From: Escherichia coli
Lineage (GTDB): Bacteria; Pseudomonadota; Gammaproteobacteria; Enterobacterales; Enterobacteriaceae
DNA: 64,000 nucleotides
Assembly (NCBI RefSeq): GCF_016903815.1
Contig: NZ_CP069973.1
Strand: one strand, 5' to 3'
Position 1 is the first letter of the stretch; every line of letters starts with the position of its first letter. A program made the position numbers. This document shows positions 53,810-62,800 of the stretch, in pieces.

Positions 53810-56800
53810 TAAGATGCGCCAGCATCGCATCCGGCACTGGCTCCCAGGCCACGCCAGATGCGCCATGCTGGTTACTGGAAGCAGGTCACCAGACCCGGTT
53901 TATTCATTAGCGTGATACTACAATCCTGTGCTCCAGTGCCTTCGTCCATCCCACACTGTTGAGAGGACAAATAAGGAAAACTTGGTGAAGACGGCCATCC
54001 CAGTGAATTAAAAACAGTGTGCAACAACTCTAATTCATTGTATGTCGGTGCATTTTCTATGCTGCCACACTGCCTTGCAATATCCCATTTACTGGCATCA
54101 ATGATATGTGCAGAAGCCCAGTTTTCGTAGTTAATAATCGGTGAGGATACGGGATTTGCCCCGGACGGCAATTCTGTCGTTAACAACGGTCGATGTAGCG
54201 ATTTACCATTCACCACTACAGTGTCTGCCATATGTCCCCAAAAGTGCGCCGAGGAAACATTCGGGCTGGTTGGTACCGTAAAAATAGCGTCCAGCGTGTC
54301 TGTCGCGGAAGCGTAATTAGCCAGAGTAACCGTCAGTGGCGTTTTATAACCAGGGGTATTATCCTGGCGGAGCGTAAAACTTGCCGTCCCATCCGCGCCT
54401 GTCATGCCACTAATGGTATTACCGCTTTCACTCAGCGTAACAGCCGAACCAGATAACGGCTGAACGATGAGATCGTCCATCGCCACCACATCACCATACA
54501 ACGTCGCCCCAGCGTTACGCGGCGATGCATCGCCACGTTTCAAAGTAAATTCCACATTCGGTACCGTATTCCCGGCGCTGTCTTTCACCGTCACGGTAAC
54601 GGGCATGGCTTCGCCTTTTTTCACTTTCGCCGCCTGGCTGTCAGCATCAAACGCTGTTGAGGTCAGTGTGACGCTGGAAACCGTCGCGCGCGCAGACACC
54701 AGACACGCCTGATAAGCGGCATTACCATTCAATGTCGTTGTGCCATCTTTCATATTGAGCGACTGATTTTTACCATCTGTAGTCTTATCCTGCGCCCACC
54801 AGTAATAATAAACTGACCAGCCAGTTTCCGTCGTAAGGGTGTTATTGGGATAACGTTGATACAGTGACTTCATATCGCTGAGCAACGGTTGCCGGGCTTC
54901 CTCACAAGGGCTGAGGCTGGCATTTGCTTTAGTGGTTGACGAAAAATAGGGCCAGTCCTCATTATTGTTATTGGTTTTATTTACCCCGGAGGTCGATGGC
55001 AGCTCCTTCCACAATTTCGGTCGTTCAAAGACGGTTCCATTTGCCGCTGTCACCGTTTCTGGCATATGACCCCAGTAGTCGGCATCCTGGGCGTCAGGGC
55101 TGGTGACCACGGTAAATATCAGGTCCAAGTTTGACGTGATCTGCGGATCTTGTGCAAGCGAGACCGTAAACGGCGTTGCCAGGCCGGTGGTGGCGTTTTG
55201 CGTAACATTGAACGTCACTGTGCCATCACTGCCGGTAAAACCAAGCCATTTTGCCGTATCCTGAGCAAAGGAAATACGGGTTGCTGTCGGTGTGACAACA
55301 TCTACAATAAGATCATCTGCCAACGATGAGGGCCTAATTCCTGAACGACTTTTCGCCTGCGCCCGCTGAAGCGTCACGCCCTCACCACTCACCAGGTTGC
55401 CATTTTGGTCTTTTACTGTCACGACTAACGGGATTGTCTCGCCCTTTTTCGCCGATGCCGAAGGTGTGCCGCCGTTACTTGCGGTTCTCGTCTCATCAAA
55501 TGCTATTGAAGTCAGGGTAACGCTTGACGGCTTAGAGTGAGGCTGTGCCAGGCAGAGCATTAGAGCAACCGGAGAGAGTGCGGATGATACTCGTCCCGTA
55601 CTTAGGTTAAAGACCTGATAATACCAGGAGCTACCATTGGAGTTAAGCAATTCATAAATCCACCAGTTTCCTGACGCTATCGGCAACCCCAGATCTTTCG
55701 TTAACGCCCCGTTTGGGTGATCGTCATATAACCCCTGCAATTCGCTGAGGCGCGGTTGATATTCCAGCGAACAATCTGCCGTCGCTTTTTGAGTACTATA
55801 TATATATGACCATGTCTCATTATTACCGTTTACCGAGCTCCCCGTAGTCGCTTCCGCTGCCAGTAATGGGCGCTTGAAGGTCACGCCTGCCGAACTGGTA
55901 AACGTTTCCGGCATATGGCCCCAGTATTTCGCTTTTGGCGAATCCGGGCTGGTTATCACCGTGAAAATGACATCCAGCGTGACGCTTTTCGAGGTATCGC
56001 GCATGAGTTCTGCGCTGAGCGGCGTTGACAGCCCATAACTGCTATTCTGGCTGACCTCAAACGTAGCTTTACCATCGCTCCCTGTCTTCAGAAGAGCCTG
56101 CGTCCCATCCCCATACAAGATTGACGTTACCCCAGTAGGTTCCACAGGTATGATGGTAAGATCATCTGCAGAGGCATCGTACGCAGCTTTAGCGCGGTTC
56201 AGCGCAGTTCCTCGTTTAAGGTTAAAGCTGGCACCTGGCAGTGGATTGCCTGCGCTATCTCGCACCGTAACAGTCATCGGGATAACCTCTCCCTTCTTCG
56301 CTGTTGCGCTGGGCCTGCCATCATTGCTGGCCGTTTTCGTTGCATCCTCCGCCGTTGAGGTCATTTCAATAGAAGCCGCCTCTGGATGAGGGTTTACCAG
56401 GCACAGCATTAATGCCGAGGTGGTTGAAGACGCTCTTCCACTTGATCCATTTAACAGATAAATATATTGATCGTACCAGTTACCCGCATATGCCACCATG
56501 TCGTAAGCCCACCAGTAGCTATTTACCGGAATACCCAGATCGGTCTTTATCGCACGACTTGGGTGTTCGTCGTACAATGCCTGTAGTTCGCTTAACAGTG
56601 GTTGATAATGTACATCGCACCCGCTTTTATCGATATCCCCCTTTGTTGCCGATCTCAACACGGCCCACTCTTCATTGTCTTCTATAAACGACTGGCCCGA
56701 CGATCTTTCAGCAGAGAGTAAGGGGCGTTTGAAGGCAGTACCAGAACGCGTAGTGAACGTTTCCGCCATATGCCCCCAGTAACTTGCCAGGGGGGTATCC

Positions 56801-59800: not shown

Positions 59801-62800
59801 AAGCCGGAATAGGTATCGATGTTGCCCGTGGCTAGGTTCACCGACGCATGCGACGTCTCTTCCACCGCACTAAGATACGCTTTTTGCAACGTTGGCCAGC
59901 CATATTCGGTGCCGATGACATTGGCTGGATGTGCGGCAAACAAACTGTGCAATGAGCTTTGGCTCGGAATATGACCTAAACCACACTCAGCCTGCATACT
60001 GCTATTCTGATCAAACAGCGCCCAGTCTTCGTTATTTTCCCGCACTGCTCCCAGTTCGTTGGCGGTTTCATCCGCCAGCCGTGGGCGTTTAAAGATATTG
60101 TTCGCTTCAATAATGCCTAACATATGTCCCCACATCCGCGCTTTGTCGGTATCGGGGCTGGTGATCACCGTAAAAATAACGTCTTTCTCATCCGAGGCAG
60201 TAAAATCACTGCGCATTCTCGCGGTGATGTGAGTTTTCACCCCCACGCCGCCTGGCTGGGTCAGCGTCAGAGAGGCCTCTCCGTTAGCATCAGTGATCCC
60301 TTCATAGGTATGGGCGTCAACTTTGCGAACGTTACTGCCGCCATCAATTTGTACCGGGTACGCCTCCCACGCGGCGTCAGTTTGATTCTTACGGTTAACG
60401 CCGTCATCCAGATGCAGCGAAAAGTAGTAGTACGCCAGCGGCTGATCGTTGTTCTTGCTATCGGTAATCGTCAGGCGTAAAGAAGCCTCTTCCCCCACCT
60501 TTACTTTCATCGCTTTTATCGTCGAATCATAGCTGCCCGGCGTCAGTACCAGCTTCGGTTCAACATCGGGCGCTTCTTTATCGACACAGCTCACAATAAA
60601 CGTCGTATCGTCCGGTTTTTGCGCTTCGCTGCGGTTCGAAACATCCGCCGCATGGTGCTGGCCGCTCATCCCCGCCAGTGATGACCAGTAGTAGTTACCC
60701 TGCATCGGCCAACCAGCCACATCCTGCACTGACGTTGGCACCACCGTCGCCAGCGCACCGAACTGACGCATTCCGGGCAAAATGTCGCAATGTTTATCCG
60801 CGCCACTCCAGGTGAAGGTTGACCAGGTTTCATTGTGATCGTTAACCGTACCGTCTTCATTATCGACTTCCGCCGCCAGTTTTGGTCGGCTAAAGGTGTA
60901 ATCAAGGGCCTTCAGCGTATCGGGCATATGACCCCACATTGTGGCCTGCGGGACATCCGGGCTGGTGAGGACGGTAAAGATCACCGCCGTTTCACTGGCC
61001 TGAGCAATACCCGCGAGGCTCGCGACCAACGGCGTTTTTACACCAGGGCCGTTGGCCTGGGTGACCGTAACCGTGGCAACACCATTCGCATCGGTAGAAC
61101 CACGATATTCCGTCGCGGTGGTGGTTAATTCGGTCGTGCCCAGTTTTACCGGCGCAGTATTGTTCACCACACCCAAGCGGTTTTCAGCATCTTTGCGTTT
61201 GATAACAAAAGGAATATTCCCCACAACATTACCGACGCAATCTTTGGTAGTGACCGTTAACGTGATACTGCCGCCAACCGTCGTTTTCGCCGCACCGGAG
61301 GATTCGTCATAGCCCGCGGCGCTGACGGAAATAAGGTCACCCTGCGCGGGCGCAATCTTCAGCGTCACTTTCTGATCGGCGAGCGTCAGAACACTTTCAT
61401 AGGGATAGCCCGTCGAGGTGAGTAAATATAACAGCGGCATGGTCTGTTGGGGATCAGGCTGCGCCCAGGCGACCAGCGAACGCCCGGCAAGTCCCTGAGC
61501 GCAAAACGAGCGATCTGCGACTGGCTGTGGGTCCAGTAAGGTGTCCGGCGTCGCGGCATCCGCCCAAACTAAAGATACTGTCGGTGGCGTTTGGTTTTCC
61601 CAACGTGGGGTGGAAATGATATCGCCTTCTCTGTCTTGCGGATTGGTGACGAGCAATTTAGAGACGCTAATATCCGCGCTGAATTCACTCGGTTTAGCGG
61701 TAAACGCTACCTCATGCGTCTTTGCAGGATCCAGAAAGACACTGCCCTGGTAGACGGGTATGCTGGCACTGTCGGCGGTGGGCACGGTACCGTTAAATTC
61801 GCCGACCGTATCTGAAGAGTCTTGCCATGCAGATTCTGCCCATGACCACCCAGGCAGCATTGCGCTTATCAGCAATGCGCATAACACAAGGATTTTATTC
61901 AGGGTCAGGGACATGACAGAAACTCCACCGGTTGTTAAACGGACGCTTGTCGCATCAACATATTTTGCTTAATCCGGGATTAAGCAAAATATGCGGAAAC
62001 AGCATTCCCTTGCGGGAATGCTGCTGAGTACGCGTTATTTGTGTTTGTAAATAATGTGAAGTTTGTAACCCTGTACCCCGTCGCCGTTTGTCGGAATGGT
62101 AAGAGCCTCTTTACCATCGCGCGCAGGACCGTTAAGGTTGGTTCTGGCTTCGTCGTTGGTCGCAGGGATGGCCAGATTGTTATTATCGAAGCTTGAGTTA
62201 ACGATACCACCCGAAGTGCCGAGCTGCTGGCTGCTGCCAGAAAGTACCCAACGGAAGTCATAATTGGCGGTAACGTCAGCATCGGTACCCGCATCAAACT
62301 TGCCGTTTTTGTTCTCATCCGAGTACAGTTTGGCCACGTAGGTTTTGCCAAGTTCGATTGGCGTGCTGCCGTTGATAAGGTTGATACTGGTACCATCAAC
62401 AAAGATGGCGACTTTCAGGTTCTGGTTAACCACCGGCCCTGGCGCAACGTTATCGCTGTCGCTTCCGCCGCCGCTGGCAGTGGAAATGTCATAAAGATGC
62501 AGCGCAGTCCCGACGTTTGGCGTACCGGTCTGCGTGGTCGGCGTAATTTCAATACCGATATAACGACCACGGTCGTCATCGGTAAGAGTGTAACTGGTCA
62601 CCTTCGTTGCCAGCTCTTTCGGATCGCCCCCCTGAGCGTCCTTGTAGCTCATCCAGCGGATAGTATCGATAGTCTTTGCGTTATCGCCCAATCCCCCAAG
62701 ATCCACGTCGCCTTCGGTATCACCAATTTCCCAACTTACGGTTAATTTATCACCCGAGTAAAGACGCTTGTCCGTTTCACTGCCTGTCGGGCGAGCGCCT

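Follow-up and report, generated by a model that had tools for sequence, protein, structure and literature searches.

The window analysed here is a 64,000-nt stretch of Escherichia coli contig NZ_CP069973.1 (assembly GCF_016903815.1). A giant open reading frame (ORF) on its minus strand, at positions 53872-61914 (8043 bp; 2680 aa plus stop), encodes a RatA-like protein made largely of nine tandem modules. We consider it likely that these modules are anciently duplicated and by now diverged copies, that the array is stable and loses modules only rarely, in frame and at short homologies, that the count of nine is genuine, and that the product would act as an adhesin, probably aided by the neighbouring protein SinH.

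The array was delimited through the tetrapeptide WGHM, which occurs nine times in the ORF translation (aa 327, 595, 863, 1145, 1429, 1713, 1998, 2281 and 2559) with spacings of 804, 804, 846, 852, 852, 855, 849 and 834 bp, all in frame. The amino-acid composition alone predicts 0.0008 occurrences, so this ninefold recurrence is not due to chance, and each copy is embedded in a longer TSP[DN]x6WGHM motif. A profile hidden Markov model (HMM) built from the modules gave nine full-length matches covering aa 209-2680 (window 53875-61290), with E-values from 1e-79 to 2e-101. The original prediction had reported exactly this ninefold recurrence and these eight spacings; the limits that it set for the array (54000-61250) placed it correctly but were slightly too narrow, and it was silent on the strand. 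Reading from the N-terminus, and always on the minus strand, module 1 occupies 60565-61290 (aa 209-450; WGHM at 60936-60925; HMM E 6e-83) and module 2 occupies 59758-60510 (aa 469-719; WGHM at 60132-60121; E 4e-90). They are followed by module 3 at 58936-59712 (aa 735-993; WGHM at 59328-59317; E 4e-93), module 4 at 58072-58875 (aa 1014-1281; WGHM at 58482-58471; E 2e-101) and module 5 at 57220-58011 (aa 1302-1565; WGHM at 57630-57619; E 1e-94). The distal part of the protein holds module 6 at 56380-57150 (aa 1589-1845; WGHM at 56778-56767; E 1e-96), module 7 at 55531-56307 (aa 1870-2128; WGHM at 55923-55912; E 3e-97), module 8 at 54682-55458 (aa 2153-2411; WGHM at 55074-55063; E 5e-95) and, as its C-terminal tip, module 9 at 53875-54630 (aa 2429-2680; WGHM at 54240-54229; E 1e-79).

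Two Pfam domains alternate along the protein, each in nine stretches and above the gathering score, namely InvE_AD (PF05689, 926 bits) and BIg21 (PF05688, 681.6 bits). Module 1 carries both, and in module 4 the best stretches are BIg21 at aa 1019-1134 and InvE_AD at aa 1137-1274. The TSPD..WGHM motif sits at the start of the adhesion domain (InvE_AD). The sole solved structure matched by sequence was 5N40 chain A, a 'putative invasin' (PDB 5n40; aa 208-422, over module 1, E 1e-28). We then modelled module 4 with AlphaFold on an alignment of 34 modules, and the model (predicted local distance difference test [pLDDT] 88.2, predicted template modelling score [pTM] 0.81) superposed on 5N40, which is InvE of Yersinia pseudotuberculosis, with a template modelling (TM) score of 0.78, a root-mean-square deviation of 2.7 A, 30% identity and E 1e-18. 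No other structure came below E 1e-3 in the fold search with this model. Because of the alternating Pfam domains and the superposition on 5N40, each module consists of one BIg21 immunoglobulin (Ig)-like domain and, after it, one adhesion domain of the InvE type, resembling the C-terminal part of InvE.

The modules are repeats at the protein level only, nine old and strongly diverged copies. Pairs of modules share 27-49% of their amino acids, and their nucleotide identity in codon-aware alignment is 40-55% (mean 46%), with third-position identity of 26-40%, near saturation. These codon-aware values are the ones used here, gappy global nucleotide alignment having given inflated figures of 67-73%. 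Neither Tandem Repeats Finder nor a megablast self-comparison of the gene detected a DNA-level tandem repeat. A sensitive blastn self-comparison returned only 13 short high-scoring segment pairs (HSPs) of 53-117 nt and 68-82% identity, almost all of them located at the TSPD-WGHM junction, and the repeat finder picked up the same patch (81 nt, 64-75% identity). W and M have one codon each and H has two, and with such low degeneracy the conservation of the patch in DNA is to be expected. Within the gene, exact direct repeats reach at most 18 nt (GTGATAACCAGCCCGGAT, at 56797-56814 in module 6 and at 55942-55959), compared with a mean of 12.7 and a maximum of 16 in codon-shuffled controls. With such values the gene does not hold the high-identity DNA repeats of recombinogenic or contingency arrays.

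The original prediction had treated the array as long tandem repeats that allow RecA-dependent expansion or contraction and invite short-read assembly collapse, so that the true copy number of the source strain might differ. In favour of this explanation, strains do differ by entire modules, with counts from 6 to 11. In E. coli, RecA/RecBCD recombination becomes efficient only with a perfectly matched stretch of approximately 23-27 bp or longer, and mismatches suppress it; RecA-dependent unequal crossing-over is therefore unlikely between modules of 40-55% identity whose longest exact run stays below that minimal processing segment. Assemblers use k-mers of 21 or more (Logan, 31), and the modules have no k-mer of 19 nt or longer in common, for which reason a de Bruijn collapse from short reads is not possible. 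On the homology measured, both classic unequal crossing-over and assembly collapse are thus unlikely. The count itself is confirmed by complete genomes. The 8043-bp gene is 100% identical in E. coli strains 7/2, YL03 and 572, and strain 222, which has the same insertion sequence (IS) junction upstream as the window, carries an 8043-bp coding sequence for the same protein. The nine modules of the window are therefore their real number and not an assembly artefact. Overall, we regard an array of recombining or miscounted DNA repeats as improbable. What stood of the original prediction is that strains differ by whole modules, and what fell is the mechanism, the risk of misassembly and the doubt about the source strain. 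The self-alignment that had been proposed as a check showed similarity at the protein level only, and the accompanying module count showed that not all isolates have nine.

Known alleles have 6, 7, 8, 9 or 11 modules. Every major allele family (the window, E371, P0054 and ST131 types, and Escherichia albertii) shows nine of them arranged in the same order, and the nine-module clusters stand for > 11,600 member sequences. We searched complete genomes with probes of 141 nt, each laid across one of two natural deletion junctions, and derived counts from the total number of matching places versus genomes. Both halves of the probe lay at two separate places, meaning that both paralogous sites were present, in 374 of 378 matching genomes for the window type and 547 of 560 for the E371 type. 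At most 4/378 and 13/560 genomes lacked separate matches at both sites, and hence about 1-2% of complete genomes carry module deletions. A deeper lineage (O145:H28, TUM13936) has a 2139-aa allele with seven modules. At the other extreme, one protein of 3264 aa has eleven modules, and its two extra modules are old, since the modules most similar to them within that protein share only 54% and 52% identity with them. None of the 120 best database matches was a ten-module allele or had a module nearly identical to the one beside it. Gains and losses of units are thus not frequent, as only losses were found, these were rare, and no expansion was recent. The array is genetically stable, and nine modules in a fixed order are its canonical state. 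Many ST131-type proteins (P0110-P0120) are truncated within module 8 (2116-2262 aa), some with short out-of-frame tails, which points to frameshifts that recur in this region of the gene or to contig ends there.

Comparison of allele families pointed the same way. Between the window and ST131 alleles, positional orthologues were 48-81% identical and paralogues 21-53%, and the positional orthologue was the best match for 9 of 10 segments. By these identities, a module is the orthologue of the one at the same position in other allele families and in E. albertii. The array thus shows no concerted evolution, and this speaks against continuing exchange among paralogous modules and against RecA-dependent recombination within the array. 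Recombination does act on the gene between alleles, as judged from their sequences. Compared with the E371-type allele (P0011/P0029), the window allele had 95-98% identity across segments S0-S3 and S9 but no more than 67-69% across S5-S7, and P0003 differs mainly in the C-terminal tip (47%). This mosaicism suggests that blocks are exchanged between alleles, possibly with diversifying selection on the distal modules. One could also take the exchange of central modules between strains as a sign of programmed variation, with shuffling or conversion of modules during infection to alter antigenicity or binding specificity. The mosaicism lies, however, between orthologous positions of alleles and not between paralogous modules, the paralogues at 27-49% identity bear no trace of conversion, and the locus has no silent donor cassettes, invertase or site-specific recombinase. 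We give this explanation almost no credence.

To examine how modules are lost, we turned to the 120 best database matches, among which many proteins of approximately 2400, 2110 and 1864 aa are almost the same as a nine-module allele but for a clean gap that leaves the reading frame intact. Breakpoints were mapped by a prefix/suffix register method, as blastp HSPs bridged the deletions. We identified 26 distinct in-register losses of one or two modules, spread over all allele families and many positions, and about ten further in-frame deletions that were out of register. In 19 of the 26, both breakpoints fell within the 30-residue FTVxTSPD..WGHM(P/A)ET patch, which accounts for approximately 11% of the period (binomial P 1e-13); the remaining in-register breakpoints were at GWP(T), ALMLCL, KKGE or NNEDWA motifs.

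The junctions of seven variants were then mapped at the DNA level, with deleted intervals of 849-2448 nt, and six of them showed a microhomology of 7-17 nt, as for a short-homology deletion. P0004 lost 852 nt at a 14-nt microhomology (GTGATAACCAGCCC; left breakpoint 57653-57666, in module 5), P0050 lost 852 nt at 13 nt, and P0007 lost 849 nt at 7 nt. Larger intervals were missing from P0046 (1704 nt, 8-nt microhomology), P0041 (1707 nt, 17 nt) and P0058 (2448 nt, 10 nt). The P0007 junction is present in the complete genome of strain KE55 and that of P0050 in FDAARGOS_1298, with a similar one in BEN5202; in addition, P0050 is indexed in 65 blocks of an assembly collection (24 contigs read). It could be argued that such alleles are assembly or sequencing artefacts and that real ones all have nine modules (or the lineage-specific seven), given that most deletion variants are singleton clusters and several come from automated short-read assemblies (Logan, ENA). 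Yet their homologies are shorter than any assembler k-mer, so that a false join would need chimeric reads, and the variants are without exception frame-preserving and clustered in a non-random manner. The deletion variants are real, because of these short homologies and of the junctions in complete genomes, and the artefact explanation is highly improbable.

Judged solely by the length of the junction homologies, we infer that modules are lost through RecA-independent slippage or template switching. RecA-independent deletions between short direct repeats within a few kb are described in the literature (PMC7145654). Under this mechanism, short homologies, as a rule 7-17 nt long and for the most part located in the FTVxTSPD..WGHM(P/A)ET patch with its low-degeneracy codons, would guide the rare in-frame loss of one or two modules, and the deletions seen would be those that keep both the frame and a foldable domain boundary. 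Slippage or template switching fits the data better than RecA-dependent unequal crossing-over, even though the breakpoints lie in the patches of highest similarity between modules, as the latter would also predict. Several points nevertheless limit this explanation. The seventh junction, that of P0037, lies inside the TGGGGGCATATG patch with an ambiguous 1-nt crossover interval and with flanking mismatches relative to the window allele, which is not its true parental allele. Homeologous RecA exchange across the patches of 70-117 nt and 68-82% identity, followed by mismatch correction, may instead have produced the deletions. That no expansions are seen could be due to selection and not to the mechanism, and the independence of the 26 events was judged by distinct breakpoints and allele families, not by phylogeny. 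A bolder version of the slippage model makes the array a natural hot spot of deletion-only, microhomology-guided and frame-preserving length variation, with selection tolerating or favouring shorter adhesins and modules that may differ in ligand specificity. We hold this to be rather unlikely, and if true, shorter adhesins could, for example, tune the reach beyond capsule and lipopolysaccharide or shed immunodominant modules.

The gene is a known and annotated one. Its product is identical to RefSeq WP_001521047.1 ('adhesion domain-containing protein') and matches the NCBIfam equivalog NF011844 ('RatA-like protein') over its entire length (residues 1-2680 on profile positions 1-2683 of 2683) with 5387.7 bits for a cutoff of 3870. 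It is the E. coli RatA-like protein, encoded by the third gene of the sinH-sinI-ratA ('ila') locus. A related gene was found in 1729 of 5426 complete E. coli genomes, always on the chromosome. In RefSeq genomes the gene order is bamB-der-yfgJ-sinH-sinI-RatA-like gene-xseA-guaBA, placing the locus between der/yfgJ and xseA. The window agrees with this order, with sinI directly upstream and xseA convergent downstream, and the full order is visible in strains 7/2 and 222. The locus is what E. coli has in place of the Salmonella CS54 island, its counterpart, and goes by the name of ila cluster in the literature on uropathogenic E. coli (UPEC).

On the downstream side, xseA (exonuclease VII large subunit; 52436-53812, plus strand; Pfam Exonuc_VII_L and RefSeq annotation) forms a conserved convergent flank. 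Upstream, sinI (62035-63012, minus strand) encodes a SinI family autotransporter-associated protein of 325 aa (WP_000806620.1; NCBIfam NF040711, 335.7 bits, cutoff 165). SinI matches the C-terminal ~105 residues of the SinH model (E 8e-11) and a ZirU family match is weak (E 3e-7), both of which fit the published analogy between sinH-sinI and zirTSU. Next to sinI lies a 108-nt 3' remnant of sinH (63067-63174, minus strand), an intimin-like inverse autotransporter gene that, by comparison with strain 7/2, is interrupted by an IS. The IS3-family (IS1203-like) element occupies 63175-64000 on the minus strand and extends past the window end; it was recognised by Pfam rve/HTH_21, NCBIfam transpos_IS3, and the annotation and junction of strain 222. 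Indeed, window 50000-63174 is 100% identical to strain 7/2, in which sinH is intact, and the identity ends at 63174. Strain 222, a urine isolate from Boston, is 100% identical over the 11.9 kb compared (52100-64000). There, sinH is annotated as a partial pseudogene, and the IS (1310 bp, 3-bp target duplication) interrupts it 105-108 nt before the stop. The sinH::IS junction is common to seven complete E. coli genomes (222, 103, 2779, 5283, 98210, 98192 and 98224).

Known systems were compared with this gene. It does not differ from the E. coli RatA-like gene, with which it shares the identical protein, the full-length model match and the context; only the upstream sinH is IS1203-like-interrupted in this strain. 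Salmonella enterica RatA and RatB (CS54 island; NF011843 and NF011842) have the same DUF823/DUF824 (InvE_AD/BIg21) repeat architecture and the same setting near xseA with sinI and sinH, and the lengths of their models (1860 and 2435 aa) correspond, by length alone, to about 6 and 8 modules. In contrast to Salmonella CS54, E. coli has a single rat gene, and there is no shdA here. The RatA and RatB equivalog models were rejected, as the scores of 2100 and 2271.4 fall below 3700 and 4079, respectively, and the best stretch aligns only the N-terminal ~1450 aa. On these scores, the window protein ranks as a paralogue-level relative of both and not as their equivalog.

In InvE, itself an inverse autotransporter anchored by a barrel, the adhesion domain occurs once, at the end of the protein. 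One RatA-like module superposes on the Ig-like and adhesion-domain portion of Y. pseudotuberculosis InvE (5N40), whereas here this two-domain unit is repeated nine times in a protein without a beta-barrel. Classification as an inverse autotransporter itself (intimin/invasin, type Ve) was likewise rejected, since no 12-stranded barrel family appeared in Pfam and only passenger-type domains are in common. The locus resembles ZirT-ZirS/ZirU and other 'two-partner-like' systems of inverse autotransporters, with a barrel protein (SinH) coming first and Ig-domain proteins that lack a barrel (SinI and RatA-like) after it, although the RatA-like cargo, at 2680 aa, is far larger than ZirS or ZirU. Whole-module differences in copy number are also known from the surface proteins alpha C/Rib of streptococci, Esp of enterococci and Bap of staphylococci. 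In those proteins the repeats are nearly identical in DNA and units are both gained and lost, whereas the RatA-like modules are 40-55% identical in DNA, show losses only, and vary in about 1-2% of complete genomes.

Outside the modules, aa 1-26 (61837-61914, minus strand) form a putative Sec signal peptide, recognised by eye from a basic N-terminus, a hydrophobic core and an SWA cleavage-type motif. The N-terminal region that follows (aa 27-208; 61291-61836, minus strand) has no recognisable family and is not a module. It gave no Pfam match at E<=10 and no profile similarity to the module alignment, and its AlphaFold model, based on a 7-sequence alignment, had a pLDDT of 33 and was unusable. 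No beta-barrel domain family was present among the Pfam matches of the protein at E<=0.01. Promoter and terminator scans around the gene found nothing above shuffled expectation.

These features suggest how the protein could work. The nine Ig-like plus adhesion-domain modules, by now strongly diverged, probably stem from ancient duplication. With a putative Sec signal peptide and no beta-barrel, the protein is probably exported to the periplasm, after which it could be displayed on the surface or released, most likely with assistance from SinH, the inverse autotransporter encoded alongside it, as in a two-partner-like system. Once displayed, it would act as a long multivalent adhesin with nine non-identical binding units. 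Rat-like proteins have been proposed, as a hypothesis, to be substrates of SinH-type inverse autotransporters (PMC4943183), and SinH-assisted, two-partner-like export of such proteins has also been hypothesised (PMC6714894). Deletion of ila genes is cited as attenuating UPEC in a murine model of urinary tract infection (PMC12928451). On the opposite side of the balance, the export route and the adhesin role are predictions from sequence, the SinH-substrate idea being itself a published hypothesis, and sinH is interrupted by the IS in this very strain. The RatA-like protein may therefore be non-exported, non-functional or SinH-independent here, or it may use another route; a barrel-less invasin-like protein (InvL-type) is described as using type II secretion (PMC9245377). 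If SinH does export SinI or RatA, the sinH::IS lineage may represent a natural export mutant.

The gene, its domains and its repeat nature were already catalogued, and current understanding is unchanged; the list of microhomology deletions adds only a little. The gene is nonetheless a large and poorly characterised part of the ila locus, associated in the literature with the urinary-tract virulence of extraintestinal pathogenic E. coli, and its neighbour SinH is pursued as a vaccine antigen. Because its modules are diverged, short reads suffice to assemble and type the gene. For annotation and typing, nine modules should be taken as canonical, with clean module deletions to be expected in approximately 1-2% of genomes. 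The case also corrects the intuition that a long coding repeat is necessarily recombinogenic.

Other observations were made in and around the locus. It is decaying in some lineages; sinH is annotated as frameshifted in the O145:H28 strain 12E115 (L003, 2897-5078) and in strain 6EVA (L005, 1-1804 and 2957-11007), and in 6EVA the RatA-like gene is frameshifted as well. Strain TUM13936 carries two adjacent genes with DUF262 domains between guaA and yfgI (L006, 17944-21173), absent from the window and the other loci. The pair looks like a small variable island next to the locus, possibly defence-related. Finally, the 1-kb bin at window 47000-47999 has a G+C content of 0.37, compared with approximately 0.50 around it; this bin lies upstream of a pdeF-like ORF (44897-47140) and adjoins the yfgG/yfgH region.

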